DNA from: a bacterium | GTDB lineage: Bacteria > Krumholzibacteriota > Krumholzibacteriia > LZORAL124-64-63 | Direction of reading: 5' to 3' | DNA: 64,000 nt | Assembly (NCBI GenBank): GCA_016712675.1 | Contig: JADJQR010000001.1 | Span: forward strand, 4,077,999 to 4,141,998 | Shown: in pieces, positions 1 through 32,326 of the stretch | How the letters are laid out: the number at the start of each line of letters is the position of its first letter | Position numbering within the stretch: position 1 is the stretch's first letter | Notes under the pieces: model-generated | The model's database searches: none | Told to the model about the DNA's origin: nothing | The model's input: only the letters and a program-made list of their open reading frames with translations | Made by a program: the position numbers and the translations under genes

Positions 1-438
1 GAACTGCTGGAGTCGAAGTACGGCGTGGCGGCCGACGTCTGGAGCGTCACCTCGTACAAGGAGCTGTACCGCGACGCCGTCGAGTGCGAGCGCTGGAACC
101 TGCTGAACCCCTCGCGCAAGGAGAAGCAGCCGTACCTGGCGCAGCTCCTGGCCAAGGAGCAGGGCGTGTTCGTGGCGGCCAGCGACTACATGAAGGTGCT
201 GCCGGCCACGGTGGCCAAGTGGTTCCCCGGCCCGGTGCACATCCTGGGCACCGACGGCTTCGGCCGCAGCGACAGCCGCAAAGAGCTGCGCGACTTCTTC
301 GAGGTCGACGCGCGCTACATCGCGCTGGCGGCGCTGCACGAGCTGGCCGGCAAGGGCATCCTGGAGACGGCCGCCGTGAAGGCGGCCATGAAGGACCTGG
401 GCATCGACCACGGCAAGAAGAACCCGCACGTCGACTGA
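1..438 (+). CDS. aceE: Pyruvate dehydrogenase E1 component, C-terminal fragment (5' end outside window)
   Basis: The frame is open from base 1. The translation ...GTDGFGRSDSRKELRDFFEVDARYIALAALHELAGKG... matches the conserved AceE C-terminus. It is followed by E2 and E3 genes in the canonical order. Confidence 0.85.
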   Translation, partial: ELLESKYGVAADVWSVTSYKELYRDAVECERWNLLNPSRKEKQPYLAQLLAKEQGVFVAASDYMKVLPATVAKWFPGPVHILGTDGFGRSDSRKELRDFFEVDARYIALAALHELAGKGILETAAVKAAMKDLGIDHGKKNPHVD

Positions 439-466
439 CCCGGTCGGCGGGCAGGCAAGGAAGAAG

Positions 467-1819
467 ATGGCACAGGACATCCGCGTTCCCGAGGTCTCCG
501 ACGGCGTCAAGCAGGGCACCGTGATCAGCCTGGTCGTGAAGGCCGGCGACCGCGTCACGGCCGACCAGACGCTGCTGGAGATGGAGACCGACAAGGCCGT
601 CGTGGCGATCCCCGCGCCGGAGGCGGGCGTGATCACCGAGGTCCTCGTCAGCGAGGGCTCGGTGGTGAAGATCGGCGACGTGATCATGAAGCTGGAGACA
701 GGCGCGGCGGTGGCGAAGCCGGCGGCGGCGCCTGCTGCTGCTCCTGCGCCGGCCCCGGCGGCACCCGTTGCCGCACCAGCCCCCGCGCGCCCGGCCGTGG
801 CCGCGGCGCAGCCCCTGCCCCCGGCGGTCGAGGCCGCCCCGCCCCCGCGCTTCGCCGACGTGCCGGTGGACCTGACCACGGTGCGCACCGGCGACGCCGT
901 GGCCCCCGCGGCGCCCTCGATCCGGCGCCTGGCGCGCGAGCTGGGCGTGGACATCTACCAGGTGCAGGGCACCGGCCCGGCCGGCCGCATCAGCGAGGAC
1001 GACGTGCGCGCCTTCGTGCGCGCCACCATGCAGCGCCTGACCGGCGGCGGCCGTGCCGGCGGCGGCGGCGAGTTCCCCGGGCTGCACGCGCAGCGCCCGC
1101 TGCCCGACTTCACCAAGTGGGGCCCCATCCACACCGAGCCGCTGTCTCGGGTGAGGGAGATCACCGCCGACGCCATGGGCTACGCGTGGTCGACCATCCC
1201 CATGGTTACGCAGTACGACCGCGCGGACATCACGCGCCTGGAGCAGTACCGCCGGAAGTACAACGAATCGGCGCCGGCCGGCGGCAAGCTGACGATGACC
1301 ACGTTGCTGCTGAAAGTCTGCGCCGCGGCGCTGAAGGCGTTCCCGCGCTTCAACAGCAGCCTGGACCTGGCGCACAAGGAACTGGTGCTGAAGGACTACG
1401 TGCACATCGGCGTGGCGGTCGACACCCCGAACGGCCTGCTGGTGCCGGTGATCCGCGATGCCGACCGCAAGGGCCTCGAGAAGCTGGCACAGGAGCTGAA
1501 CGACGCCGCGCAGCGCACGCGCGACCGCAAGATCTCCCCCGCCGAGATGGAAGGCGGCACCTTCACCATCTCCAACCTGGGCGGCATCGGCGGCACGGCG
1601 TTCACGCCCATCGTCTACGCGCCGCAGGTGGCCATCCTGGGCGTCTCGCGCTCGGAGATGGCGCCGGTCTGGAACGGCGGCCAGTTCGCGCCCAAGCTGA
1701 TGATGCCGCTGTCGCTGACCTATGATCACCGGGTGATCGACGGCGCCGACGGCGCCCGCTTCCTGCGCTGGATCTGCGAAGCGGTGGAAGAGCCCCTGAA
1801 CCTCGTGCTGAAGGGATGA
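467..1819 (+). CDS. aceF: Dihydrolipoamide acetyltransferase (PDH E2)
   Basis: N-terminal lipoyl domain (EMETDKAVVAIPAPEAGVI), an Ala/Pro-rich linker, an E3-binding domain and a 2-oxoacid dehydrogenase catalytic domain ending in DHRVIDGADGARFL. Confidence 0.9.
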   Translation: MAQDIRVPEVSDGVKQGTVISLVVKAGDRVTADQTLLEMETDKAVVAIPAPEAGVITEVLVSEGSVVKIGDVIMKLETGAAVAKPAAAPAAAPAPAPAAPVAAPAPARPAVAAAQPLPPAVEAAPPPRFADVPVDLTTVRTGDAVAPAAPSIRRLARELGVDIYQVQGTGPAGRISEDDVRAFVRATMQRLTGGGRAGGGGEFPGLHAQRPLPDFTKWGPIHTEPLSRVREITADAMGYAWSTIPMVTQYDRADITRLEQYRRKYNESAPAGGKLTMTTLLLKVCAAALKAFPRFNSSLDLAHKELVLKDYVHIGVAVDTPNGLLVPVIRDADRKGLEKLAQELNDAAQRTRDRKISPAEMEGGTFTISNLGGIGGTAFTPIVYAPQVAILGVSRSEMAPVWNGGQFAPKLMMPLSLTYDHRVIDGADGARFLRWICEAVEEPLNLVLKG

Positions 1820-1823
1820 TCCC

Positions 1824-3221
1824 GTGAGCGACGTCATTCCCGCCACCGCCCAGCTGGTCGTCGTCGGCGCCGGCCCGGGCGGCTACCACGCCGCGTTCAA
1901 GGCCGCCGAGCTGGGGCTTTCAGTCACTTTGATCGACCCCGCCGTCAACCCCGGCGGCGTCTGCCTGTACCGCGGCTGCATCCCCTCGAAGGCGCTGCTG
2001 CACGTGGCGAAGCTCGTGGACGAGGCGCACGAGAGCGCAGCGATCGGCGTGACGTTCGCCAGGCCGGAAATCGACATCGACCGCGTGCGCGCCTGGAAGG
2101 ACGAGGTCATCGGGAAGCTGACCGGCGGGCTGGGCCAGAAGGTGACGCAGAAGAAGCTGACCTACGTGCGGGGCACGGCTCGCTTGAAGGATGCGCACAC
2201 GCTGGTCGTCACCGCGCAGGACGGCACCGTCGGCGAGCTGACGTTCGAGCAGGCGATCCTCGCGACCGGCTCGCAGCCGGTCATGCTGCCGGGCGTGACC
2301 AAGAGCGACCGCATCGTCAACTCGACCGGCGCGCTGGAACTGAAGGACGTGCCGGCGACGATGCTGGTCGTCGGCGGCGGCTACATCGGACTGGAGCTGG
2401 GCTCGGTGTACGCGTCGCTGGGCAGCAAGGTGAGCGTGGTCGAGATGACCAACGGCCTGCTGCCGGGCGCCGACCGCGACCTGGTCTCGGTGCTGAAGCG
2501 CAGGCTCGATACGAAGTTCGCGGGGTTCAAGCTGGAGACCAAGGTGGCCGGCCTGAAGGAGAAGAAGGACGGCGTCGAGGTCACGTTCGAGTCCGCCAAG
2601 GGCGAGCAGTCGGTCGAGACCTTCGACAAGGTCCTGATCTCGATCGGCCGGCGTCCCAACACTGCGGATCTAGGCCTGGAGAACACGGCGATCAAGCTGG
2701 ATGAGCGGAAGTTCGTCGTCGTCGACGGCCAGCGCCGCACGGCTGAGCCCAACATCTTCGCCATCGGCGACATCGCCGGCGAGCCCATGCTGGCCCACAA
2801 GGCCTACGCCGAGGCCGAGGTGGCCGCCGAGGCGGCCGCCGGCCGCAAGGCGACCTACGACCCGCGCGCGATTCCCGCCGTCGTGTTCACCGACCCGGAG
2901 ATCGCCTGGTGCGGCCTGACCGAGACCGAGGCGCGCGCGAAGGGCATCAAGGTCAAGACGGCGAAGCTGCCGTGGCGGGGGAACGGGCGCACTTTGACGC
3001 TCGGGCGTGAGGATGGGATCACGAAGCTGATCGTCGACCCGGACACCGATCGCGTGCTGGGGATGGCGGTGGCGGGGCCGGGGGCGGGCGAGTTGATCGC
3101 CGAAGGCGTGTTGGCGATGGAGATGGCGGCGGTGAGCGAAGACATGCGGCGGACCATTCATCCGCATCCGACGTTGTCGGAGACGGTGTATGACGCGGCG
3201 CAGTCGCTATTCAAGGCTTAG
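1824..3221 (+). CDS. lpd: Dihydrolipoyl dehydrogenase (E3)
   Basis: GTG start. FAD-binding GxGxxG motif (VVVGAGPGGY), redox disulfide motif GGVCLYRGCIPSKALL, and a C-terminal dimerisation region ending HPHPTLSETV. Confidence 0.9.
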   Translation: MSDVIPATAQLVVVGAGPGGYHAAFKAAELGLSVTLIDPAVNPGGVCLYRGCIPSKALLHVAKLVDEAHESAAIGVTFARPEIDIDRVRAWKDEVIGKLTGGLGQKVTQKKLTYVRGTARLKDAHTLVVTAQDGTVGELTFEQAILATGSQPVMLPGVTKSDRIVNSTGALELKDVPATMLVVGGGYIGLELGSVYASLGSKVSVVEMTNGLLPGADRDLVSVLKRRLDTKFAGFKLETKVAGLKEKKDGVEVTFESAKGEQSVETFDKVLISIGRRPNTADLGLENTAIKLDERKFVVVDGQRRTAEPNIFAIGDIAGEPMLAHKAYAEAEVAAEAAAGRKATYDPRAIPAVVFTDPEIAWCGLTETEARAKGIKVKTAKLPWRGNGRTLTLGREDGITKLIVDPDTDRVLGMAVAGPGAGELIAEGVLAMEMAAVSEDMRRTIHPHPTLSETVYDAAQSLFKA

Positions 3222-3244
3222 CGCACACGACGCGCGAATTGCAG

Positions 3245-3293
3245 TTGCGCCGGCGCAAGTCTCACGATTGTGGGATGAGTTGCGCCGGCGCAA
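3245..3293. repeat. Tandem pair of the perfect 14-bp palindrome TTGCGCCGGCGCAA (3245-3258 and 3280-3293), immediately 3' of lpd
   Basis: Read directly in the sequence. The same 14-mer recurs at 24273, 28997, 46035, 50954 and 52710, with a one-mismatch variant at 45799. Confidence 0.8.
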
Positions 3294-3428
3294 TTTCGTG
3301 GGTACGGGCCCGCCAAGTGCGGACATCCACAAACGGCTCGAATCGCTGGGAATGCCATCCAGCAGGCCGGACCTGCAGACTGGATCTGTCTTCAATGCGA
3401 GGCGGCACGTGCGGCGCGATCGGCGGAC

Positions 3429-4673
3429 TCAACCAGTCCCGATCATGCGCAGGGGGATCGCATAGATCCGGTCCCCCAGGGGAACCAGCGTCTCGCCATC
3501 GTACAGCAAAGCTCCGCAACGGAACCCGTCGCCTACGGCGTCCCTCAGGCGCTCGAGTCCGCGGCGGTCCGAATCCCTCAGGGTTGCTGAAGCCTTGACC
3601 TTGATGCCGACGACACGGTTCGGGCCACGTTCCAGGACGAGATCGACTTCCTGCTGGTCCTTGTCACGGTAGTGGGAGAAGCGGACGTTGTGCTCCCAAC
3701 CGCTGGCCTGGCGGCGGAGTTCCTGGACGACGAATGTCTCGAGCAACTGCCCGAGCAGGGTGCGGTCATCGCGAAGGTCCGCAGCCTCGACGCCAAGCAG
3801 CGCACACGCCAGGCCCGTGTCGGTCAGGTGGAGCTTCGGGGTCTTGACCAGGCGCTTCAGCCGATTGGCGTGCCAGGCCGGAAGCTCTTCCACGAGGAAG
3901 ACGTGGCGCAGCAAGGTCAGATAGTCGCCCACGGTCGTGCGATTGACACCGAACGGCCCGGCAATCCCGCTCACGTTGACCAGTCGGGCCGTCTGCCCGG
4001 CTGCGAGTTCCAGCAGACGCGGCAGGATGTCAAGCCGGTGGATGCGGGAGAGATCGCGGACATCGCGCTGGATGATCGCGTCCAGGTAATCGCGAACCCA
4101 GGCCCGCCGGCCTCGCTCGGTGTCGCGCCGCACGACTTCGGGGAATCCCCCCCGCACGATGAGGTTCGCCAGTTCCGGGCCCAGGCGTTCGCTGTGGGCG
4201 ATCTTGAACTCGCCGGCGAAGATCCGCTCCAGGAACTGCGGCTGATGCCGCCCGATCTCCACTTCGCTCAGGGGATGGAGGCGGACGGTCTCCATGCGAC
4301 CGGCAAGAGAATCGGCGACCCGGGGGACGAAGAGCGCGTTCGCCGAACCCGTGAGCAGGAACCGCCCTGGCCGACGATCACGATCGACCGCCTGCTTGAT
4401 GGCGAGGAAGAGCTCGGGGACCCGCTGGACTTCATCGATGGTGACGGGGCCTTCGAGATCGAGCACGAACCCGGCGGGATCCGCCTGGACCGAGGCGAAC
4501 GTCAGTGCATCGTCCAGGGTGAGGTACTGGCGATCCCCGTCCTCGCCGAGGCTCCGGGCAAGCGTCGTCTTGCCGCACTGCCGCGGCCCATGCAGCAGCA
4601 CAACGGGGGAATCGGCGAGAGCCTCACGCAGGCGCGCCCGGACGAGGCGGGGGTATAGTTCGGTTGTCGCCAT
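3429..4673 (-). CDS. AAA+ ATPase, DUF4143/AAA_14 family (ATP-binding protein)
   Basis: Walker A motif GPRQCGKTT, a hhhhDE Walker B motif, and a C-terminal DUF4143-like region. It lies inside the segment bounded by the duplicated lpd 3' end. Confidence 0.8.
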   Translation of the reverse strand: MATTELYPRLVRARLREALADSPVVLLHGPRQCGKTTLARSLGEDGDRQYLTLDDALTFASVQADPAGFVLDLEGPVTIDEVQRVPELFLAIKQAVDRDRRPGRFLLTGSANALFVPRVADSLAGRMETVRLHPLSEVEIGRHQPQFLERIFAGEFKIAHSERLGPELANLIVRGGFPEVVRRDTERGRRAWVRDYLDAIIQRDVRDLSRIHRLDILPRLLELAAGQTARLVNVSGIAGPFGVNRTTVGDYLTLLRHVFLVEELPAWHANRLKRLVKTPKLHLTDTGLACALLGVEAADLRDDRTLLGQLLETFVVQELRRQASGWEHNVRFSHYRDKDQQEVDLVLERGPNRVVGIKVKASATLRDSDRRGLERLRDAVGDGFRCGALLYDGETLVPLGDRIYAIPLRMIGTG

Positions 4674-4696
4674 GCGGCGGATTGTCAGCTAACTCT

Positions 4697-4752
4697 CGTC
4701 CAATTGCAATAATTTATTCGTCCGAATGCCATATATAGTGCGTCCAATTGCA
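4697..4752. promoter_or_regulatory. Three direct repeats CGTCCAATTGCA / CGTCCGAATGCC / CGTCCAATTGCA at 22-bp phasing in an AT-rich region upstream of the DUF4143 ATPase gene
   Basis: Repeats seen at 4697, 4719 and 4741. They are 25-75 bp upstream of the minus-strand start at 4673. The CAATTG core is palindromic. Confidence 0.4.
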
Positions 4753-4785
4753 GGAATAGAGGCGCGGGACCAGAATCTGAGAAGG

Positions 4786-4854
4786 ACGATCCATCCGCAT
4801 CCGACGTTGTCGGAGACGGTGTACGACGCGGCGCAGGGGTTGTTCAAGCCGTAG
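4786..4854 (+). repeat. Direct repeat (about 85% identity) of the lpd 3' terminus (3153-3221), including an in-frame stop codon
   Basis: It encodes IHPHPTLSETVYDAAQGLFKP*, against lpd ...IHPHPTLSETVYDAAQSLFKA*. This resembles a displaced old 3' end (attR-like) left by integration into the 3' end of a protein-coding gene. Confidence 0.75.
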
Positions 4855-5101
4855 GGCACACGAGCCGTTTCACAGGCGTCAACGTCTGGACAGCCTCCAC
4901 CCCGGGACCGTGCAGGCGCACCAGGTACGACCCGGAAGCGACCCGAGCGGCCGCGCAGGTCGTACACACACGGTCCCGCTAGACCCTATGGAGTGACCGG
5001 CCCCCTTGTCGTAACGTCGCCACTGTCGTTCAGGTGGTAGACGATGGCGGCCGGGTGGCAAGCACCGCAGTCGCGGGTTAGCGCCGAGGCGCCAGAGCCG
5101 C

Positions 5102-6213
5102 ATGCGACGAAGGGAGCCGGCGATGAGCAGTATAACCTACGTCGGGCTGGATGTGCACAAGAGGACGATTGCCGTGGCGATGCTTCAGACCGGGACCGGG
5201 GAAGTGCTGCAGTGGGAGGTGGCGAACGAGCCGACCGCCTTGAAGCGATTGATCCGCAAGCCAAGCCGCACGCGCCGTTGCGATGTGTGTACGAGGCCGG
5301 CCCCACGGGCTACGGCCTGCAGCGGCAACTCCAGGGGAAGGGATCGATTGCATGATCGCCGCGCCGTCCCTGATCCCGGTGCGCCACGGGGACCGGGTCA
5401 AGACCGACCACCGGGACGCCCGTAAGCTGGCCCATCTGCATGCCGCGGGGCTGCTGACCGCGGTGCACCCCCGACCGAGGACGAGGAGTCGGTCCGGGAT
5501 CTGTGCCGGTGCCGGGAGGATGCGCAGCTGGACCTGGTGCGCTCACGGCAGCGCCTCGGCAAGTTCCTGCTGCGCCGGTCGCTGGTCTTCCATGACGGCA
5601 ACCAGTGGTCGCAGAGGCACCATACGTGGCTGCACGGATTGAAGTTCTCCCGGGCCGCCGACCAGGTCGTGTTCGAGGACTACATGCTGGCCCTCGAACA
5701 GCACGAGGCCCGGGTTGCGGCTCTGGACGAGCAACTGGCCGCCGTGGCCGCGCAGGACCCGTACCGCGAACCGGTGGCTCACCTTCGCTGCTTCCGCGGT
5801 ATCGACACGGTCACCGCCCTGTCCCTGGCCGCCGAGCGCACGACGTCCGCCGGTTCCCGACCGCGCCTGCACTGATGGCCTACCTCGGGCTCGTGCCGAG
5901 TGAGCACAGCAGCGGCGAACATCGACGACGAGGCGGGATCACCAAGACTGGCAACCGCCACGTCCGGCGCCTGCTGATCGAGACCGCCTGGCACTACCGG
6001 CACAAGCCCGCGGTGGGGGTGAGGCTGGCCAAGCGTCGGCGCGGGCAACCACCCCAGGTGATCGCCCGGGCTGATCGGGCGCAGCAACGGCTGTGTACGC
6101 AGTACCGGCGGCTGGTCGGCAAGAGCAAGCACCACAACACCATCGTCGTGGCCATCGCGCGGATGCTGATCGGGTACGTGTGGGAGACGCTGCGTGAGGC
6201 GCAGCCAAGTTAG
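5102..6213 (+). pseudogene. IS110-family transposase, disrupted by at least 3 frameshifts
   Basis: An N-terminal MSSITYVGLDVHKRTIAVAML (DEDD domain) and a C-terminal ...MAYLGLVPSEHSSGEHRRRGGITKTGNRHVRRLLIETAWH (IS116/IS110/IS902 domain) are spread over four overlapping ORFs in different frames (5102, 5283, 5537, 5605). Confidence 0.8.
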
Positions 6214-6474
6214 GCCTGAACCAGAACCCCGGGATCGGCGGTCGGAGACGGCGGATGAGAACAGGCACGATCCGGAGAACCCGCGTTATCGGTAAGCGAC
6301 TGGGCCGAACAGTCCAGACTCGCGATGCTAGACAGCGGTACCTCCCGACGGAGCACGGTCATGCGGCACGGCACCGGTGCGCCGGCGCAACCCGCGAATA
6401 TCAGAGTGACACGTCGTCGAAGCGTCCTGCCTCGTCCGCCCTCCCCGACCGTCGTGGCCTTGAACCGATAAGGG

Positions 6475-6506
6475 AAGGGCCGCCTCCCTGACGGAAGACG
6501 GCCCTT
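6475..6506 (-). terminator. Possible hairpin (8-bp stem AAGGGCCG/CGGCCCTT, 16-nt loop) 19 bp downstream of the beta-helix gene; no U-tract
   Basis: Inverted repeat seen in the sequence. Its function is uncertain. Confidence 0.25.
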
Positions 6507-6524
6507 GACTTGGGTCACTCCATA

Positions 6525-7739
6525 TCAGCGGAACATCACCTTCACCTCTCCCCAAGATGTCACGTCGGTCGGCACCGGCCCACCCGCGAAGGGCTCGAAC
6601 ACCACCTTGCAGGCGACGGGCGGGTAGCACCGGTTGTCGCAGATCGACGCACGGATGGACTCCGCATCCGATGTGCCCCAGAAATTGTCCGTCAGATCGA
6701 TCGCCGTGACCGGTTCGTCATAGTACTCGCTGTAGAACGCCCATCCGGAAGCGGGGAGGAAGTCGCTGCCGTGGATGGACGCGCGCCCGCCGAGATTCAC
6801 GACCAGTGCGGAAGCGGTGGTGCCGGAAATGACAAGAGATCTTGCCGTCACGATCCCGCCATCGATCTCCAACCCCCGGGTACCGCCCGTCAGGGCGGTG
6901 TTCGCGAAGTCGACCGTGGCACCGGACATGACCCACGCCGAAGCGAACGATGAGTTCACAACCGCGCAGTTCTCGACTCGGCCCTTGCTTTCCGCCTGGA
7001 ACACGATGCCACTCTGCGCATCCTCGATGGTCGTGTTGCGGATGACGACATCCTCGGCCCACGGCATGACCTCGACCCCCGTCGCGCCTCCGCGTATGGT
7101 GCAGTTGTCGATCAGGCAGCTGTCAGGGTGTCTCTTGGTGTGATAGACCACGATGGATCCGGTGCTGTTGGGCTGCTCGAAAGTGCAGTCCCGGACGATC
7201 GCCTCGACCTTGTCGACAACGATGCTGGCGCCGCGATCGCCGCCGATAAACACACATGACCGAATCAAGAGATGGCCGTTCGCCCAGTTGATTCCGAGGT
7301 CGGTGTTCTCAATCGTCATGTTCTCGATGGCCACATCGTGACCGCCGTCCGAGTAGAACACCTGGGACATCGCGTCCGTCTTGCCCGCTGGCCCCAGGAA
7401 TGTCCTGTCACATCCGGATCCCGTGATTCTGAGTCCGGACTTCTTGACGCCGACGATCGTGCTCACCGACCACGGTGGGAACTCTATGGTACGAAATGTC
7501 GCAAAGCGGCCTGGCCCGATGCTGATCGTGTCGCCGGGCGCCGCGGCCTCGACGGCGGGCTGGATATCTGAATAGTCGCCGGATCCGTCCACCTCCACGT
7601 GCCAGATGCGGGCACCCGCGCTGGTGGCGGCAAGCAGCACGAACAAGCCCATCGCCAGCCGTGCAATGGCAAAGGTCGACACCTCAGGAACCTCGCTTGG
7701 TCGAGCCATCTGGGCCCGTGTGCGTGGTCGCGCCATCAC
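6525..7739 (-). CDS. Secreted right-handed parallel beta-helix repeat protein (pectate-lyase-like fold)
   Basis: Signal-peptide-like N-terminus (true start possibly at the internal Met codons at 7709 or 7652). Repeated NxTIxN / IRxCxF beta-helix rungs (ENMTIENT, IRSCVFIG, VRDCTFEQ, IDNCTIRG, IRNTTIED). Confidence 0.7.
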   Translation of the reverse strand: MMARPRTRAQMARPSEVPEVSTFAIARLAMGLFVLLAATSAGARIWHVEVDGSGDYSDIQPAVEAAAPGDTISIGPGRFATFRTIEFPPWSVSTIVGVKKSGLRITGSGCDRTFLGPAGKTDAMSQVFYSDGGHDVAIENMTIENTDLGINWANGHLLIRSCVFIGGDRGASIVVDKVEAIVRDCTFEQPNSTGSIVVYHTKRHPDSCLIDNCTIRGGATGVEVMPWAEDVVIRNTTIEDAQSGIVFQAESKGRVENCAVVNSSFASAWVMSGATVDFANTALTGGTRGLEIDGGIVTARSLVISGTTASALVVNLGGRASIHGSDFLPASGWAFYSEYYDEPVTAIDLTDNFWGTSDAESIRASICDNRCYPPVACKVVFEPFAGGPVPTDVTSWGEVKVMFR

Positions 7740-8689: not shown

Positions 8690-9812
8690 AGTCGACTTTC
8701 AGGGGATGTACGGGTTCATCCTACCACATCGGCGCACCAAAGGCAACGCGGACGCCGTTTCCACCCCGAGCGGCGCCAATTCCCCGCGTTCACGGGCCCA
8801 TGCCCCCATCCACCGCTCTGCCGAGGCTACGGCCCATTCCGGTTCCGCTGTCAGGGGATCACTCCCAGCCGTCCGCCGCCGCCCCGCCGTCTGGTCCATC
8901 TCCGGCCAGTCGCCGGTGGCGATCGTCTGGTCGAACCCGAACTCCAGCTGCGGCGGCGATCGCGCCGGCAGCACTACGGGCGGCTGCGTGGGCAGTCGGC
9001 CTGCGGCCGACCGGCGGAAGCCGCTTGGGCACCGATGGCAACCACGCACGTTCGCCGATGACGCCGATGTGCTCGAGGATCCGCTCGACCTGCGGCTGGT
9101 CCAGCACGAACGCGATGTTGCGCATCAACTCACCGCATTTCGGGCATCTCAGGGGGAGGCATTCATAGATCCGCACCAGCAGCAGCGCCCAGCAGCGGGC
9201 CGCGGCGCGGCGCAGTTTCAACAGCGGCGATGACGGATCGGGCTCGGCCGGCTCGGCCGCCGGCAGCCCCATGCTCGCGCGCGCCTGCTCGAGCAGCTGA
9301 AGCGTCGCCCCCGCCGGCCCGGCCGATGCGGTCACCGCCTCGCGCAGCGCCGCAGTGGGCGCCAGCACGCCGCAGTAGCGAGGCTTGTGCAGTCGCGGCG
9401 AGGTCACCAACTGGGCCAGCAGGTCCAGCAGCTCGAGCGGGGTCAGCAACAGTTCGGTGCGGCCGTCGGCGGTCGGGCGGCGCAGGCTGTAGACCAGGGT
9501 CTGTTCGTTGAGGCGGCCCAGGCGCTCCTGGCTCAGCGGCGGCCGGGCGCAGTACCGCACCAGACGCTCGAGGCCCTGGCGGTCCCAGCCCGGGATCGTC
9601 ACCGAGGCGTCGACCGACCAGCCGCCGCCGTGTTCCAGGCTGTCCAGTACGTGAAGGGCATCGTCATCGAGGTGGCCGTGCCGGTGCAGCCAGCGCAGGC
9701 CGCGGTGGCGCATCTTGGCTTGAACCGCTTCGAAGTCATCTCGTTCCAGGTCGAGCGCCGGGTGAAAGACCGCCTCGTCGTCATCGCCGGCGCTGAACAC
9801 GCCGTCGGTCAC
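8690..9812 (-). mobile_element. 5'-truncated copy of the IS91-family element (3' end region plus the C-terminal 317 codons of the transposase)
   Basis: 8859-9812 encodes a polypeptide about 90% identical to residues about 215-470 of the full transposase at 22629-24221, including the zinc-knuckle LPLRCPKCGE. 8690-8858 resembles the element end at 22500-22690. Confidence 0.75.
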
Positions 9813-14032: not shown

Positions 14033-14747
14033 GTGATGCACTCTCCGGTAAGGGGGTTCTGGGCGCAGGCGGGTCTCCCGGCATGATTCGCGCGATGGCG
14101 TGTGAGAGGCCCGCTGGACGCGCCGCACGGCGACATCCAACAGCACGTGGCATGCCCGTCACGACGCGCAGAAGGCTGCGAGTCTGCGCTCCTGCAAGAT
14201 GCGTAACGGCAGCGATGTACGTGCGGGGAGCCCTTGCGAGCGGTGACGTGCGGGCATGGCGAGGCGGTTCGGCGACTCCGGTTGGCGGACCGGCGCGTAC
14301 GAATCCCGGACTGGTGCCTTGAAGGCGGTCCCGACCCTGGTCCACGAGCGGGCCCGGTTCACCGGCCGCGGCGGTCGAGCGGCAGAGCGTTGCGTCATGG
14401 GGAACCGCCGGAGCCGCATGGACGTGCGTCGGTAGGAACTGGCACGGCACGCCCACGCAATCCGCCGCCCGCTGTCGACAGTCATGTTCGTCGGCAGCGG
14501 CACCCTGGTGAGATCCTGCGGAGAACGGCTGCTCCACCGGCAGTCGCCGCAGGGAACGAGTTGCGTCTCCCGATGCCCCGAGTCACAGCCGAGACCAGCA
14601 AGATGCGGGTGGGATCGGCCCAGGGTTGGCGCAAGAGCCCTGCCCGTCGGCTATCAGACGGCGCGCAGCCGATTTCTGGTTTCAGCATCAACCCCAAGAC
14701 AATAGCGGGCAACTGCCATCGCCGTTGCCGATCGACAACCCTCGGCG

Positions 14748-15165
14748 GATAGGAGTTTCAACCCACCATTCCCCCTCGCCAAACCCTCGCGAGAGCCCTC
14801 CGACACTCCCTGAGTATCCCGCGCCGGAGCCCCTGAAGTCGATCGACCCGCCCCAATCCCCCACCCAGTCGCCGATCTCGCCCTGCACAGGGCCGATTCC
14901 GCCCCTTCGCGGACACACGCCCCCATCCGCCGCCCTGCCGAAGCCGCGGCCCGACACCGTTCGCCTGTCAGGGGATCACTCCCAGCCGTCCGCCGCCGCC
15001 CCGCCGTCTGGTCCATCTCCGGCCAGTCGCCGGTGGCGATCGTCTGGTCGAACCCGAACTCCAGCTGCGGCGGCGATCGCGCCGGCAGCACCGTCGGGGG
15101 CTGCGTCGGCTCGCCGATGTGCTCGAGGATGCGCTCGATCACCGGCCGGTCCAGCACGAACGCGG
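14748..15165 (-). mobile_element. IS91-family 3'-end remnant (tnp C-terminus with internal deletion plus the downstream element end)
   Basis: The ORF 14654-15157 begins MLDRPVIERILEHIG, matching FVLDRPVIERILEHIG of the full transposase. 14748-14975 aligns with 22440-22690. Confidence 0.6.
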
Positions 15166-17265: not shown

Positions 17266-17760
17266 TCAGATCCGCATTGGCTCACCGCACTTCGGGCATC
17301 TCAGGGGAAGGCATTCGTAGATCCGCACCAGCAGCAGCGCCCAGCAGCGGGCCGCGGCGCGGCGCAGGTTCGTCAGCGGCGATGGCGCCTCAGGCTCGGC
17401 CGGCTTGGCGGGCGGCAGCCCCATGCTAGCTCGCGCCTGCTCGAGCAGCTGCAGCGTCGCTCCCGCCGGCCCGGCCGATGCGGTCACCGCCTCGCGCAGC
17501 GCCGCGTTCGGCGCCAGCACTCCGCAGTAGCGATGCTTGTGCAGGCGGGGCGGGGTCACCATCTGGGCCAGCAGGTCCAGCAGCTCGAGCGGGGTCAGCA
17601 GCAGTTCGGTGCGACCGTCGGCGATCGGGCGGCGCAGGCTGTAGACCAGGGTCTGTTCGTTGAGGCGGCCCGGGCGCTCCTGGCTCAGCGGCGGCCGGGC
17701 GCAGTACCGCACCAGACGCTCGAGGCCCTGGCGGTCCCAGCCCGGGATCGGAGCGCGCTG
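17266..17760 (-). mobile_element. Internal IS91-family transposase fragment (about 160 codons ending ...LPLRCPKCGEPMRI)
   Basis: High identity to residues about 280-440 of the transposase at 22629-24221. It is truncated at both ends. Confidence 0.7.
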
Positions 17761-18054
17761 TCGGACTGCCTCTGGGTCGACTGCGGGGCGATCACCACGG
17801 TGACGTTCGCCGACGCCGCGCTCGAGCAGGCCGTGCGCTCGCACGTGCACAAGCCGGCGGGCGGCCTGACCACCACCGACGTGGACACGCTGCACCACCT
17901 GGTGGCGCCGGCGCTGGGGATCGTGTCGCTGGAGGGCCTGCAGGCCTGCGCGTCGCTGCTGACGGCGCGGCTGCGGGGCAACGCCATCGTCGACCTTGGG
18001 CCACTGCATGAACTGGTGAACCTGGGCGACCTCTACCTGAACAACAACGAGGTC
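17750..18054 (+). pseudogene. Leucine-rich-repeat protein gene, upstream fragment (interrupted by IS3 at 18055)
   Basis: LxxLxLxxNxIxDLxPL periodicity (LTARLRGNAIVDLGPLHELVNLGDLYLNNNEV). The reading frame continues exactly across the IS at 19364. Confidence 0.45.
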
Positions 18055-18104: not shown

Positions 18105-19333
<1,229 letters not shown>

Positions 19334-22433: not shown

Positions 22434-22628
22434 TTCTCGATCATCTTCGCGGATAGGAGTTTCAACCCACCATTCCCATCGCCAAACCCTCGCGAGAGCC
22501 CTCCGACACCTCGTGAGTATCCCGCACCGGAGCCCCGGAAGTCAACCCGCCCGCCCCGCTCCCCCACCCAGGCGCCGATCTCGCCCTACACAGCGCCGAT
22601 TCCGCCCCTTCGCGGACACACGCCCCCA

Positions 22629-24221
22629 TCAACCGCCCTGCTGAGGCTGCGGCCGCGCCGATTCGCCTGGTAGGGGATCACTCCCAGCCGTCCGCCCCCC
22701 GCCCCGCCGTCTGGTCCATCTCCGGCCAGTCGTCGGTCGCAGGCTCTCTGGTCGAACCCGAACTCCAGCTGCGGCGGCGACCGCGCCGGCAGCACCGTCG
22801 GGGGCTGCGTCGGCAGTCGGCCTGCGGCCGACCGGCGGAAGCCGCTTCGGCTCCGATGGCAACCACGCACGTCCGCCGATGACGCCGATGTGCTCGAGGA
22901 TGCGCTCGATCACCGGTCGATCCAGTACGAACGCGAAGATCCGCATCGGCTCACCGCACTTCGGGCACCTCAGGGGAAGGCATTCGTAGATCCGCACCAG
23001 CAGCAGCGCCCAGCAGCGGGCCGCGGCGCGGCGCAGGTTCGCCAGCGGCGACGGCGCATCGGGCTCGACCGGGCTGGCCGCCGGCAACCCCATGCTCGCA
23101 CGCGCCTGCTCGAGAAGCTGCAGCGTCGCTCCCGCCGGCCCGGCCGAGGCCGTCACCGCCTCACGCAGCGCTGCGTTGGGCGCCAGCACGCCGCAGTAGC
23201 GGTGCTTGTGCAGGCGGGGCGGAGTCACCAGCTGGGCCAGCAAGTCCAGCAGCTCGATCGGCGTCAGCAGCAGCTCGTGGCGGCCGTCGGCCGTCGGGCG
23301 GCGCAGGCTGTAGACCAAGGTCTGCTCGTTGAGGCGGCCCAGCCGCTCCTGGCTCAACGGCGGCCGGGCGCAGTACCGCACCAGCCGCTCGAGGCCCTGC
23401 CGGTCCCAGCCCGGTATCGTCACCGAGGCGTCGACCGACCAGCCGCCGGCGTGGTCGCTGCTGTCGAGGACATGAAGGGCGTCGTCATCGAGGTGGCCGT
23501 GGCGGTGCAGCCAGCGCAGGCCGCGCTGGCGCATCTTCGCTTGAACCGCTTCGAAGTCCCCCGGTTCCAGGTCAAGCGCGGGGTGGAACACGGCCGCGCC
23601 GTCATCGCCGGCGCTGAACACGCCGTCGGTCACCAGCACGTGGAAATGGACGTGGCTGTTGAGGTAGCTGCCGAAACGGTGCACGAACGCCACGGCACCG
23701 AAGCGGGCGCCCGGCGGCGCGCCGAGGCTGCGCTGGCGCAGGGTGGTCTCGACGGCGCGCAGGAAGATCGCGAGCAGGCCGCTGATCACCTCGGGCTTAT
23801 TGCGCAGATGCCATCTCACCCGCTTGGGCACCGACAGCACCCACTGGCGGTGCTGCACGCGCGGCAGCACCTGGTCGACCATGTGCGATGAGACTTCCAC
23901 CATGCGCCGCGTCGCGCACGACGGGCACAGGTCGCGGCCCTTGCAGGAGAAGGCGACCAGGAAGTCACGGCGGCAGTTGCCGCAGTATACCCGGGCAAAC
24001 CCGTGGGCCAGGATGCCGCACCTCAGGTAATTGCGCAGGGCGGCCTCGACGTGCAGCGGAGCGCCGCGGCCGTACTCGTCGCGCTCGGCTGCCGTCGCCA
24101 GCCAGGTCTCCAGATGGGTGCGTACCAACTCGTGCAGCAGAGTGGCCGCCGGGCGTCGCGGGCGGTAGGCGCGCGGGGCGGGAACTGTCGCCGGCTGGTG
24201 ACACGTCGCTGCTGCGGGCAC
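22629..24221 (-). CDS. IS91-family transposase (HUH Y2 rolling-circle transposase)
   Basis: N-terminal zinc-binding CGNCRRDFLVAFSCKGRDLCPSC, HUH motif HVHFHVLV, and C-terminal LPLRCPKCGEPMRI, as in IS91/IS801/IS1294 transposases. Confidence 0.85.
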   Translation of the reverse strand: MPAAATCHQPATVPAPRAYRPRRPAATLLHELVRTHLETWLATAAERDEYGRGAPLHVEAALRNYLRCGILAHGFARVYCGNCRRDFLVAFSCKGRDLCPSCATRRMVEVSSHMVDQVLPRVQHRQWVLSVPKRVRWHLRNKPEVISGLLAIFLRAVETTLRQRSLGAPPGARFGAVAFVHRFGSYLNSHVHFHVLVTDGVFSAGDDGAAVFHPALDLEPGDFEAVQAKMRQRGLRWLHRHGHLDDDALHVLDSSDHAGGWSVDASVTIPGWDRQGLERLVRYCARPPLSQERLGRLNEQTLVYSLRRPTADGRHELLLTPIELLDLLAQLVTPPRLHKHRYCGVLAPNAALREAVTASAGPAGATLQLLEQARASMGLPAASPVEPDAPSPLANLRRAAARCWALLLVRIYECLPLRCPKCGEPMRIFAFVLDRPVIERILEHIGVIGGRAWLPSEPKRLPPVGRRPTADAAPDGAAGAVAAAAGVRVRPESLRPTTGRRWTRRRGGGRTAGSDPLPGESARPQPQQGG

Positions 24222-24478: not shown

Positions 24479-25099
24479 ATGAGCAAAGGACCAGAAAAAC
24501 TGAGCCCCAACGAGGCTGCCATCCTCAAACTGGCAGCCTCCCTTGGCATCCTCAGGCCGCGCGACCTGCGCGCGCGCGGGCATTCGGTCGCCTATCTCCA
24601 GCGCCTGCTGGCAAAGGGGCGTCTGGCCAAGCTCGGGCGTGGCCAGTACGCCCTGCCCGATCGTGAACCGACCGCGGACGACACCCTGGCCGTCACGGCC
24701 AACCGGTATCCCGCAACGGTGGTTTGCCTGCTCTCGGCGCTCCGGTTCCACCAGCTGACGACCCAGTCACCCCGCTCGATCTGGCTCGCGGTCGAAGGCT
24801 CGAAACTGGCCCCAGCCAACACCCCGGCTGCGGTCCAGGTCGTCAGGATGACCGGCCCCTCGTTCACGAACGGGATCACGACTCACCTCGTCGGCCAGGT
24901 TCCCGTGCGGATCTACGATCCAGCCAAGACCGTCGCCGACTGCTTCAAGTTCCGCAATCGGGTCGGCCTCGACGTCGCCGTCGAGGCGCTCAGGGACTGC
25001 CTGGCCCAGCGGCGCGCCACGCCCGCCCAGATCTGGAGCTTCGCTGGGATCTGCCGCGTCAAGACCATCATGAGGCCTTATCTGGAGGCCCTCACGTGA
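24479..25099 (+). CDS. abiEi: Type IV toxin-antitoxin system antitoxin, AbiEi family (winged-HTH transcriptional regulator)
   Basis: N-terminal wHTH (AILKLAASLGILRPRDL...LAKLGRGQYALPD) and the AbiEi C-terminal domain. Its stop overlaps the GTG start of a DUF1814 nucleotidyltransferase (GTGA). Confidence 0.8.
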   Translation: MSKGPEKLSPNEAAILKLAASLGILRPRDLRARGHSVAYLQRLLAKGRLAKLGRGQYALPDREPTADDTLAVTANRYPATVVCLLSALRFHQLTTQSPRSIWLAVEGSKLAPANTPAAVQVVRMTGPSFTNGITTHLVGQVPVRIYDPAKTVADCFKFRNRVGLDVAVEALRDCLAQRRATPAQIWSFAGICRVKTIMRPYLEALT

Positions 25100-25971
25100 C
25101 GGCCGAGGACCGCACCCGCCTGCAGAATTCGGTCCGGCAAAGGCTGCTCAACATCGCCCAGAGGGACAACACCGACTTCCAGATGGTGCTGACAAGGTAC
25201 GGACTGGAACGTTTCCTCTACCGGCTGGGGCGATCCCCCCACAGATCCACCTATGTGCTGAAGGGCGCCTTCCTCTTCTACGCCTGGCAACAAGAGGTGG
25301 GTCGTCCGACCCGCGACCTGGATCTGCTCGGCCACGGCTCCCCGGACATCCGCAGGCTGGAAGGCGTCATCGCCGACATCGCTGCCGTGGAAGTCGAAGC
25401 TGACGGTTTGGACTTTCAGCCGGATACGATCCGAGGCGAGGCCATCCGCGAAGCTGCATTGTACGACGGGATCCGGTTCAGGCTCGTCGCCAACCTCGGC
25501 AAGACCCGCATTCCGCTGCAAGTCGATATCGGGTTCGGTGACGCCGCCGGACCCTCGGCCGTCGAGCTGGCATACCCGACGCTGCTCGACCAGGACGCCC
25601 CCAGGATCCTGACCTACCGGCCCGAATTCGTGGTCGCAGAAAAGCTCGAGGCGATGGTCACCCTCGGCGACATCAACACCCGACTCAAGGACTACTACGA
25701 TCTGTGGCGGATCAGCCGTACCATGGCATTGCCGCGTGAACACCTGATCGAGGCGGTGCGGACCACGTTCTCGCGCCGAGACACCGAGATCCCCACTGAG
25801 GTTCCCTCAGGTTTGGCCGACGGATTCGCCGACGCCCCTCGGTCCCGCATGTGGACCGCATTCATTGCCCGGAACGGACTCGACGCGGGAGGTGCATCCC
25901 TCGTGGAAGCGGTACGGGAGCTGCGCTTCCACTATTGGCCGTTGATCAAGGCGGCAGGAATTGCCGAATGA
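25096..25971 (+). CDS. abiEii: Type IV toxin-antitoxin system toxin, AbiEii/AbiGii nucleotidyltransferase (DUF1814)
   Basis: LERFLYRLGRSPHRSTYVLKGAFLFYAWQQEVGRPTRDLDLLG matches the AbiEii N-terminal nucleotidyltransferase motif. GTG start with a 4-bp overlap with abiEi. Confidence 0.8.
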   Translation: MTAEDRTRLQNSVRQRLLNIAQRDNTDFQMVLTRYGLERFLYRLGRSPHRSTYVLKGAFLFYAWQQEVGRPTRDLDLLGHGSPDIRRLEGVIADIAAVEVEADGLDFQPDTIRGEAIREAALYDGIRFRLVANLGKTRIPLQVDIGFGDAAGPSAVELAYPTLLDQDAPRILTYRPEFVVAEKLEAMVTLGDINTRLKDYYDLWRISRTMALPREHLIEAVRTTFSRRDTEIPTEVPSGLADGFADAPRSRMWTAFIARNGLDAGGASLVEAVRELRFHYWPLIKAAGIAE

Positions 25972-26287: not shown

Positions 26288-27679
26288 TTGCAACGCCATG
26301 CCATGAAAAGACTTAACTCATGGCTTGAGACAGTGAACCGAAAGCCCTTGCTCATTCGCGGTGCGCGCCAAGTGGGCAAGTCCACGCTCGTCCGCCTCTT
26401 CGCCCAGCGTACGGGTCGGGACCTCTACGAAGTCGATCTCGAGCGGTACCCGGAACTCGAAGCCGTCTTCGCATCGCGGGACACGTCGCGGATCATGTCG
26501 GAACTGGAATACCTGATCGACAAGGGTCCCCTCAAAGGCCATGCGTCCATGCTCTTCCTGGACGAGATCCAGGCCGCACCCTCCGCCGTTGCGGCTCTCC
26601 GCTCCCTGCACGAAGACCGACCCGACCTGCCGGTCATCGCCGCCGGTTCGCTGCTCGAGTTCGTCCTGGCGGACCACGCCTTCTCCATGCCCGTGGGTCG
26701 CATCGAGTACCTGTTTCTGGAGCCCATGGGATTCGAGGAATTCCTCGAGGCGCTCGACGAGATGTCGCTGCTGGAACTGCTGCGCACGCACCGGTTCGGC
26801 GATGACTTTCCGGGGACTGCCCACAGGCGGCTGCTGGGGCGGCTTCGCGACTACATGCTGGTCGGCGGGATGCCGGAACCCGTACGTGTCTTTGCCGAGA
26901 CGGGTTCATTCGCGGCCACGGGCTCGGTCCACGCTTCGATCCTCGAGACCTATCGCGACGACTTCGCCAAGTACGGCTCGCGCTCCGAGATCGCCCAGTT
27001 GCGCCGCATCTACGGTTTCGTCCCCGGAGCCGTCGGCGAGAAGTTCAAGTATTCCCGCGTGGACTCGGACGCCAGGTCGCGCGACGTCAAGCGGGCCCTC
27101 GAGCTGCTGGTGATGGCGCGGGTCGTCCGCCGCGTGACGCACACCGATGCGACCGGCCTCCCCCTTGGCGCGAACCTCAAGGAGTCGGCCTTCAAGACCT
27201 ACTTCCTGGACGTCGGCCTCATGAATGCCGCCTGCGGCATCGACCGCTTGACGCCAGAGCAGGTGGCCGGGGCGCGCTTCGTCAACGAAGGCGCCATGGC
27301 CGAGCAGTACATCGCCCAGCACCTGCCCCTGCTCGCGCCCGACGACCGCGCCTACACGCCCACCTACTGGCTGCGGGAGGGCCGCACCAACAACGCCGAG
27401 GTTGACTTCGTGCATCAACTCGGCCCAGATGTCGCGCCCATCGAGGTGAAGGCCGGCAAGAGCGGATCGCTGAAGTCGCTTCTGGAACTGGTGTCGGCGC
27501 GGAGCTATGATCGGGCCCTGCGCTTCGACACGAATCCCCCGCACCTTCAGCGCGTTTCACACGCGCGGTCACACGGCGACGAAGTGGTCGAGTTCACGCT
27601 GCTGTCATTGCCCCTCTATATGGTCGAGCAGGCCCCCCGGCTCTGGAGGGATCCCGGAGACGGCGCAAGTGCGCCATGA
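26288..27679 (+). CDS. AAA+ ATPase, DUF4143/AAA_14 family (second paralogue)
   Basis: Walker A GARQVGKST, Walker B LFLDEIQ, and a DUF4143-like C-terminal region. The start may be the internal Met at 26303. An AT-rich promoter island lies upstream. Confidence 0.8.
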   Translation: MQRHAMKRLNSWLETVNRKPLLIRGARQVGKSTLVRLFAQRTGRDLYEVDLERYPELEAVFASRDTSRIMSELEYLIDKGPLKGHASMLFLDEIQAAPSAVAALRSLHEDRPDLPVIAAGSLLEFVLADHAFSMPVGRIEYLFLEPMGFEEFLEALDEMSLLELLRTHRFGDDFPGTAHRRLLGRLRDYMLVGGMPEPVRVFAETGSFAATGSVHASILETYRDDFAKYGSRSEIAQLRRIYGFVPGAVGEKFKYSRVDSDARSRDVKRALELLVMARVVRRVTHTDATGLPLGANLKESAFKTYFLDVGLMNAACGIDRLTPEQVAGARFVNEGAMAEQYIAQHLPLLAPDDRAYTPTYWLREGRTNNAEVDFVHQLGPDVAPIEVKAGKSGSLKSLLELVSARSYDRALRFDTNPPHLQRVSHARSHGDEVVEFTLLSLPLYMVEQAPRLWRDPGDGASAP

Positions 27680-31399: not shown

Positions 31400-32326
31400 A
31401 TGGCGCAACCCAAAGGCTGCCTGAAGTCCTGCGGCATCGGCTGCGCGGCATTCGCCGCCTTGCTGGTGATCGGCGGCGTGATCATCTCGACGCTGGCCTG
31501 GAAGGCGCTCAACGGGGACGGCAAAGGGCGGCCGGCTGCGGATGTGGCCATCGAGGCGCCGGCCGGCTCGGTGAGCGAGCCGATGAGCGCGCGCGCGGCG
31601 CGGCTGACCACCACGCACGGCGGGCGCGTGCGGCTGGTGCTCGGTGAAGGCGAGTTCCGCCTGCGCCCGGCCAAGCCCGGTGAGGGGCTGCATGCGCGCG
31701 CCGAGTACGACTCGACGGTGCATCGCCTGACCGAGCGGTTCAGCGTGCTGCCCGATTCCTCGTGGGAATACCACCTGGACTGCCGGCAAGTGGGCTCCAC
31801 TTCGTTCCTCAAGCAGCTCTTCGGCGGCAAGCGCACGAACGCGAAGGTGACGGTGTACCTCCCGGCCGAGGTGCCCCTGGACCTGGACCTGCACGCGCGC
31901 CGCGGCGGCTGCGAGGCGGACCTGGGCGGGCTGTGGCTGCGCACGGGCGAGATCCGCTTCGACCAGGGCGGGATCGAGCTGGAGTTCAGCAGCCCTCTGC
32001 GCGAACCGATGGAGAGCCTGCGGCTGCAGGCGCGCATGGGCGGCATCTCCGCCAAGCGCGTGGGCAACGCCTCGCCGCGGGCCCTGGACATCGACTGCGC
32101 CATGGGCGGCGGCGATATCGACCTGCGCGGCGCCTGGCGCGGCGACTGCGTGGCCCGCGCCTCGGCGCGCATGGGCGGGGTCAGCCTGCAGGTGCCGGCC
32201 GAGATGCGGGTCGAGGGGCATGGCGCTTCCGAGCCGTCGCTGGCCGCCTCGAACGCCGAAGTGCCGGCGCCGGTGCTGCGGCTGACGGTCGACGCGAAGA
32301 TGGGCGAAATCGAAGTAACAAGATAG
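31400..32326 (+). CDS. Membrane-anchored protein with DUF4097/LiaF-like repetitive beta-rich C-terminal domain
   Basis: N-terminal transmembrane segment CGIGCAAFAALLVIGGVIISTLAW. Repeated GG(I/V)(S/D)x(R/K)-type segments (MGGISAKRVGN, MGGGDIDLRG, MGGVSLQVP). Confidence 0.55.
   Translation: MAQPKGCLKSCGIGCAAFAALLVIGGVIISTLAWKALNGDGKGRPAADVAIEAPAGSVSEPMSARAARLTTTHGGRVRLVLGEGEFRLRPAKPGEGLHARAEYDSTVHRLTERFSVLPDSSWEYHLDCRQVGSTSFLKQLFGGKRTNAKVTVYLPAEVPLDLDLHARRGGCEADLGGLWLRTGEIRFDQGGIELEFSSPLREPMESLRLQARMGGISAKRVGNASPRALDIDCAMGGGDIDLRGAWRGDCVARASARMGGVSLQVPAEMRVEGHGASEPSLAASNAEVPAPVLRLTVDAKMGEIEVTR

Follow-up and report, generated by a model that had tools for sequence, protein, structure and literature searches.

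An orphaned lpd terminus next to a candidate defence gene at a bacterial insertion hotspot, possibly displaced by homology-anchored recombination

Displaced orphan 3' ends arising from anchor-mediated recombination have been described for Rhs, contact-dependent inhibition (CDI) and type VI secretion system (T6SS) effector loci (PMC5361080). Homology-facilitated illegitimate recombination is the subject of de Vries & Wackernagel 2002 and Prudhomme et al. 2002, as cited in PMC5361080. Here we analysed a 64,000-nt stretch of bacterial DNA (contig JADJQR010000001.1, positions 4,077,999 to 4,141,998; the whole stretch is hereafter the window) in which the 3' end of lpd, the dihydrolipoyl dehydrogenase gene, recurs as an orphan copy on the far side of a gene for a DUF4143 ATPase. 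Most probably the locus bears a recombination scar of an ordinary kind, in a hotspot for defence genes and insertion sequences (IS), with a known candidate defence gene. We give about an even chance to the reading that the orphan lpd terminus was displaced by homology-anchored recombination with DNA of a relative. The locus offers a checkable example of a housekeeping gene end being swapped while a candidate defence gene is added alongside, and the fossil of an old gene end can pass for an att site.

As in the Rhs, CDI and T6SS loci (PMC5361080), a conserved gene would have been the anchor, with a replacement 3' end added, the old end kept downstream and no dedicated recombinase. Unlike those loci, the anchor here is a housekeeping gene and its new end is allelic and functionally equivalent; the cargo is a candidate defence gene rather than a toxin tip with its immunity gene. 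Complex class 1 integrons with ISCR1 carry a partial duplication of the 3' conserved segment (3'-CS) around captured genes, usually explained by a circular intermediate and homologous recombination. The window resembles them in having a captured gene enclosed by a conserved segment that is partly duplicated in direct orientation, and differs in that no IS91 or ISCR element lies between the repeats; IS91 copies are found nearby, and they abut the cassette only in the related loci L126, L002 and L127 (related loci and proteins carry L and P numbers here).

We observed that the lpd 3' end at 3151-3230 is repeated at 4784-4863 (80 nt, 88% identity; repeat search of the window), and a BLAST search of the lpd end against the entire window returned this single second copy (E = 2e-21). 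A first-pass annotation, made from the letters alone, had reported a 69-bp repeat of about 85% identity; that span (3153-3221 versus 4786-4854) is identical at 60 of 69 positions, and the repeat is in fact longer. The longest run without a mismatch is 32 nt (3159-3190). Similarity extends 9 nt beyond the stop codon (GCACACGA), and weak protein-level similarity to Lpd reaches upstream of the second copy, back to ~4762. The start of copy 2 was placed at ~3125-3151 in lpd coordinates, and its first ~25 nt appear to have decayed towards A/T. Both copies keep the reading frame and a TAG stop, as the annotation had said, and copy 2 has no indels. Six codons differ between the copies, of which four are synonymous and two alter the variable C-terminal tail (S/G, A/P). 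Within its conserved part the repeat shows three differences, none of which alters the protein; evolution of both copies inside working genes would lead to this. The palindrome pair, the ATPase gene and the repeat-bearing promoter that the annotation had placed between the copies were all found there.

The working lpd end carries an excess of changes found in the window alone. lpd is the final gene of a pyruvate dehydrogenase (PDH) E1-E2-E3 operon that is collinear with those of relatives, and the window Lpd is 96% identical to P0001. Window-unique sites numbered 17 of 153 in 3101-3253 and 98 of 3100 upstream (P = 2e-5, Fisher test); over 3101-3253 the counts of unique sites were 17 for the window, 5 for L001 and 2 for L137. 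The excess of window-unique changes begins at 3104, ahead of the 32-nt identical block and a little ahead of the start of copy 2, and the unique changes in the coding part of the divergent tract are mostly synonymous. A donor-type tract in the anchor gene next to the insert is a feature of an illegitimate-recombination scar, and these counts place one here. The unique-site excess and the affinities of the two copies fit a working end that is an allele from an unsampled lineage, with copy 2 as the old resident end. Of the proposal that an element had supplied a replacement lpd end, the replacement has some support and the 1.56-kb element has none.

Comparison with related genomes separated native from foreign DNA. 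Relatives were fetched through the Lpd protein and comprised L003 (86% nucleotide identity), L137 (GCA_016709775.1, ~90%), L132, L129-131 and L138-146; in none of them does an ATPase gene or a second lpd end follow lpd. The empty sites sought by the first-pass annotation therefore exist, in six related lineages (L003, L137, L132, L129-131 and L138-141 among the loci), and the ATPase gene is an insertion polymorphism. The ancestral order after lpd is a gene for a ~316-aa protein, a PAS kinase, response regulators, KaiB and KaiC (L003, L137, L132, L129-131); in L138-146 a radical-SAM gene takes the place of the ancestral neighbour. Homology between the window and L137 covers both palindromes downstream of lpd and ends at 3299, and in L137, L003, L132 and L138-141 the empty sites hold sequence collinear with the spacer plus both palindromes (3222-3299). 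Because these are present at empty sites and the L137 homology stops there, 3222-3299 is native chromosome and foreign DNA begins at ~3300. The palindromes had been counted as part of the insert, which is incorrect.

The ancestral neighbour of lpd resumes at an ATG at 31400, and so the insert is ~28 kb rather than 1.56 kb. The ATPase gene is the first gene of this island, not the sole cargo of a short element as had been proposed. Between palindrome 2 and the ATPase stop, the flank at 3300-3428 is 91.9% identical to that of L126, and it is absent from L137, L003 and L128. The region 3' of lpd is variable in several lineages, including this window and the P0012 contig, where a restriction-modification (RM) system follows lpd. 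The locus thereby identifies the DNA that follows lpd as a hotspot for insertions in the uncultured lineage studied here.

Displacement by homology-anchored recombination would have proceeded as follows. DNA of a diverged relative, already arranged as lpd, palindromes and ATPase gene, would have entered the cell, and lpd would have served as the homologous anchor with a crossover near 3100. The far end of the import, just upstream of the ATPase operator, would have been joined illegitimately within the resident lpd ~75-95 nt before its stop. Integration of a circular fragment by a single crossover would be an equivalent route. By either route the lpd end would have been replaced in frame and the resident terminus pushed downstream. 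A later IS110-associated rearrangement and other insertions would then have altered the sequence after the orphan copy.

Several observations weigh against this displacement. The best match to 3101-3299 among the sampled relatives is ~90%, and the donor lineage was not found. At the junction (4753-4783), where the sequence is shifted towards A and T, we did not see clear microhomology; GGACC was the one possible match. The 115 nt after copy 2 (4864-4978) are not the expected native spacer and palindromes; they contain no palindrome and matched no fetched locus. Because copy 2 lacks the native spacer and palindromes downstream, at least one further rearrangement must be assumed. The tract may also not be a single import, because the ATPase gene is nearer to L126 (96%) than the lpd end is (~90%). 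Over the last 71 nt, the number of positions identical to L126, L001 and L137 is 66, 65 and 64 for copy 2, as against 63, 62 and 65 for copy 1, differences that are not significant. Copy 2 is thus marginally nearer to L126 and L001 and copy 1 is nearer to L137 by one site, so that the affinity of the copies depends on 1-3 sites and is reversed for L137. Finally, the divergent lpd end could stem from an unrelated recombination, the operon being mosaic throughout. Across the PDH operon (window 1-3299, L001, L137), some blocks group the window with L001 as its sister and others, interspersed with them, are star-like, a sign that homologous recombination has been frequent between these lineages. 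The mosaic also counts in favour of a homology-anchored event.

Candidate remnants elsewhere were also considered. If a large island had integrated, its far end should carry another piece of lpd, and no such third fragment was found there. We considered whether the IS110 element had separated copy 2 from a native palindrome now at 6377, and rejected this on the evidence of intact IS110 copies, which place this palindrome inside the right end of the IS. Bases in L126 that could have been a remnant of copy 2 are the tip of a mini-IS91 element.

Codon usage also changes over the end of lpd. The last ~90 codons (~375-465, window ~2950-3221) are poor in C-ending codons, with a C content at third positions of 0.06-0.32 versus ~0.5 upstream. 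This is common to the window, L001 and L003 and is not seen in L129, L132 or L004, a lineage-specific change.

Site-specific integration would explain the repeats as attL (3151-3230) and attR (4784-4863), produced by an attP site that mimics the lpd 3' end and by a recombinase that was lost or acted in trans; we consider this unlikely. Like islands placed by tyrosine recombinases at gene 3' ends, the locus has imperfect repeats that bracket foreign DNA, an intact gene and empty sites in relatives. The in-frame direct repeats with their 32-nt identical block, the mostly synonymous differences between the copies and the variable DNA after lpd in more than one lineage (the window; the RM system of the P0012 contig) also agree with it. 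Unlike such islands, the locus has no integrase. Its absence between the repeats had been stated by the first-pass annotation, and Pfam scans of sizeable open reading frames (ORFs) from 3.2 to 34 kb found no tyrosine or serine recombinase in the whole island either; the transposases in this range were IS110 (DEDD), IS91 (Y2) and IS3 (rve) only. The bracketed segment starts with native chromosome, and an element would need to have carried the host spacer and the two palindromes found at empty sites. Divergence begins upstream of the identical block, at 3104, which does not suit a crossover inside the block. Cargo copies at other loci lack the repeat: cassettes elsewhere have no lpd-like end, and the ~95% identical relatives have no second repeat. 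The lpd core is absent from viral contigs. A degraded or trans-mobilised element, or an undescribed way of moving DUF4143 genes, had been suggested; neither a 1.56-kb element nor an undescribed mobility mechanism finds support here.

The orphan terminus might instead have arrived on the island, to which we assign a similarly low probability. Here a large chromosomal fragment of a close relative, with the island 10 nt after the lpd stop, would have brought the last ~95 bp of the donor lpd at its left edge, joined illegitimately upstream of an ATPase gene already resident beside lpd. The order lpd, two palindromes and ATPase gene without copy 2 does occur in L126, L002 and L127, the missing palindromes after copy 2 would need no extra event, and copy 2 leans slightly to L126 and L001. 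The IS110 element and the beta-helix gene that follows it are also shared, at 94.6%, with the organism of L001 and L133. It would leave unexplained why the unique-site excess starts (3104) just upstream of the start of copy 2 (~3125-3151), and the left flank of the IS110 element in L133 is a peptidase gene, not lpd.

Duplication in situ, either as a local tandem copy or as templated filler DNA from break repair or IS rearrangement, followed by decay, appears improbable to us. The copies are just 1.6 kb apart in a region rich in IS elements and rearrangement breakpoints, and the A/T-shifted start of copy 2 looks like decay. The absence of indels from copy 2 and the wholly synonymous differences in its conserved part argue against it. 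Copy 2 is also at least as close as copy 1 to the working ends of two of the three relatives, the opposite of what vertical descent would give, on small counts. It is very improbable that DUF4143/PDC-S01 genes are autonomous single-gene mobile units whose protein binds the 22-nt-period array, drives insertion and duplicates 80-270 bp of target: two of ~8 loci with usable flanks are bracketed by direct repeats of similar geometry (the lpd end; a transposase 5' fragment in L083), but the L083 repeats lend weak support to a general rule because they are fragments of a multicopy transposase gene.

We next give the coordinates of the features (Table 1).

Table 1. Features of the lpd locus and the adjoining island, in window coordinates
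Feature	Position	Strand	Evidence or remark
lpd (dihydrolipoyl dehydrogenase)	1824-3221	+	Pfam Pyr_redox_2 and Pyr_redox_dim
Divergent tract: copy 1 (3151-3230), spacer, two palindromes	3101-3299	+	Arrangement native, allele unlike sampled relatives
Two copies of palindrome TTGCGCCGGCGCAA	3245-3258, 3280-3293	.	Chromosomal, REP-like (repetitive extragenic palindromic)
Strain-specific island between lpd and ancestral neighbour	3300-31399	.	Synteny with L129, L132, L003, L137
Flank, palindrome 2 to ATPase stop	3300-3428	.	Common to the L126/L002/L127 group only
AAA_14 + DUF4143 ATPase-nuclease (predicted), 414 aa	3429-4673	-	Pfam, PADLOC PDC-S01
ATPase regulatory region	4674-4752	-	Three direct repeats TGCAATTGGACG; alignment of 11 loci
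Junction zone	4753-4783	.	lpd similarity weak, AT-shifted, ~60-70%; exact breakpoint not fixable
Copy 2, orphaned lpd 3' terminus	4784-4863	+	Last 23 codons, TAG, 9 nt
Stretch between orphan terminus and IS110	4864-4978	.	115 nt
IS110-family element, frameshifted transposase (pseudogene)	4979-6527	+	Pfam and NCBIfam DEDD, Transposase_20
IS91-family (Y2_Tnp) copies	8859-9812, 17266-18009, 22629-24221		Two truncated
IS3-type gene	18422-19333		
AbiEi/AbiEii pair	24479-25971		
Second PDC-S01/DUF4143 gene	26288-27679		Pfam, PADLOC

The ATPase matched Pfam domains PF13173 (1.1e-23) and PF13635 (4.6e-47) and the PADLOC PDC-S01 hidden Markov model (HMM) PDLC04790 (E = 1.4e-167), and its Walker A motif (GPRQCGKTT) is present. 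PDC-S01 is reported to rank fourth in frequency among the candidate defence systems of prokaryotes and awaits validation (PMC12988326). It combines an ATPase and a PD-(D/E)XK-type domain in one fusion protein (PMC12988326; PMC3424549), and DUF4143 has been placed in the PD-(D/E)XK superfamily (PMC3424549). Like other PDC-S01/COG1373/DUF4143 ATPases, the window protein combines AAA_14 with DUF4143, gives a strong HMM match and has its gene in a variable island that also contains AbiE and another PDC-S01 gene. Unlike other members, it has Lys in place of the predicted catalytic Glu of the ExK motif (E358K, codon 3600-3602; GIKVK). Of 120 homologues, 116 read GIEVK, among them the ones at 94-98% identity, and K was found in the window copy only. 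This copy may be nuclease-dead, or E358K may be an assembly error. The ATPase probably acts as an autoregulated candidate defence nuclease. No solved structure matched it by sequence.

The ATPase gene occurs in different contexts. L128 shares the gene and operator with the window at 92.8% over 3420-4750 only, flanked by an IS21-like fragment and, at the opposite border, by the end of an unrelated gene. In ten other loci (L083-L092 included; 78-85%), only the gene and the three-repeat region are in common, and conservation does not extend past the outermost repeat upstream or past the ATPase stop downstream. Because L128 and the ten loci share only gene and operator, the gene moves between contexts without conserved termini or an lpd mimic; no lpd-like flank was found at the cassettes of L128 and L083-L092. 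L126, L002 and L127 (~95%) have the same arrangement as the window, namely lpd, two palindromes, 129 nt and the ATPase gene, and the tip of a miniature IS91 derivative stands ~10 nt upstream of the outermost repeat in place of copy 2. The first-pass annotation had called for a search for the same ATPase-plus-repeat cassette at other gene 3' ends, and no DUF4143 cassette bracketed by repeats at the 3' end of another gene was found. In the unrelated metagenome contig L083, an 85%-identical DUF4143 cassette lies between direct repeats (126 nt at 93% and 65 nt at 86%). These repeats, at 1396-1613 and 3119-3385, are 5' fragments of an rve-type multicopy transposase gene, and their geometry is the same as that of the lpd repeats in the window.

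Searches of plasmid and phage collections returned nothing closer than distant DUF4143 genes on plasmids and no phage match at all, and viral contigs gave no close relative of the ATPase. Queries for proteins exactly identical to the window Lpd and ATPase returned none. We detected no tRNA in the window and no Rfam RNA family in 3000-7000, and the surroundings of the cassette contain neither a sigma-70 consensus promoter nor an intrinsic terminator.

The region upstream of the ATPase gene carries three 12-nt direct repeats (TGCAATTGGACG; 4697-4708, 4719-4730 and 4741-4752) with a period of 22 nt, and the outermost repeat marks the conserved boundary of the cassette. Throughout the family, DUF4143/PDC-S01 genes have similar arrays immediately upstream, made of 3-5 direct repeats with a period of 22-23 nt. 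By strict matching, at least three repeat copies were present at 13 of 30 DUF4143 loci versus 6 of 155 control windows. The array loci are the window (4697-4752), L084, L089, L093, L094, L098, L102, L105-L108, L114 and L115. The repeat sequence varies with protein lineage (CAATTGGACG, CAATTGGCCG, TTGCAATCCGCGG, CCAATTTGGACG, ATACTTTTCGCGG). This pattern suggests that the DUF4143 protein binds its own upstream region. The arrays are the more useful by-product of this analysis, as a testable handle on self-binding or autoregulation of very common, uncharacterised candidate defence genes.

The 14-nt perfect palindrome TTGCGCCGGCGCAA is dispersed in the window, with nine matches (at most one mismatch) versus 0.05 expected, starting at 3245, 3280, 6377, 24273, 28997, 45799, 46035, 50954 and 52710. 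It is mostly intergenic, often lies between convergent genes and is often followed by GTC or TTTCG. One or two palindromes occur 20-60 nt after the lpd stop in L003, L137, L132, L138-141, L001 and L126; among the empty-site relatives, L129-131 alone have no palindrome after lpd. By comparison of L003, L132, L137 and L138, the palindrome is conserved as a motif across related species; it may represent a REP-like element, or a global regulator may bind there. Its distribution is a warning that a dispersed palindrome should not be counted as part of an element.

The island continues from the DUF4143 gene through the lpd fragment to the frameshifted IS110 element and then the rest. The IS110 ORF is split over frames 2, 3 and 1. 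Intact 366-aa relatives (P0241, 96%; L133-L136) align from 4979, which set the left end by comparison, and the right end was inferred from a 12-nt inverted repeat (TATGGAGTGACC; 4987-4998 and 6513-6524). The near-copy of the palindrome at 6377-6390 is inside this right end. The IS110 left end is a rearrangement breakpoint, because L133-L136 share the right flank of the window (the beta-helix gene) and not the left flank.

Further along, the second DUF4143 gene, a distant relative of the first, adjoins the AbiEi/AbiEii pair and has no flanking repeats. Two PDC-S01 genes and AbiE make the island a small defence island. IS91 end-like repeats at 14743-14854 and 22448-22565 are solo end fragments. 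The mini-IS91 of L126 (1408-1630) consists of a 107-nt internal piece fused to an end, and it abuts the ATPase operator in L126, L002 and L127. Other island cargo includes secreted proteins with beta-helix and FlgD_ig domains, an amidase, a ROK kinase and ferritin. G+C content at third codon positions is 0.80-0.86 in the island up to ~27.7 kb, versus 0.94-0.99 in the PDH genes.

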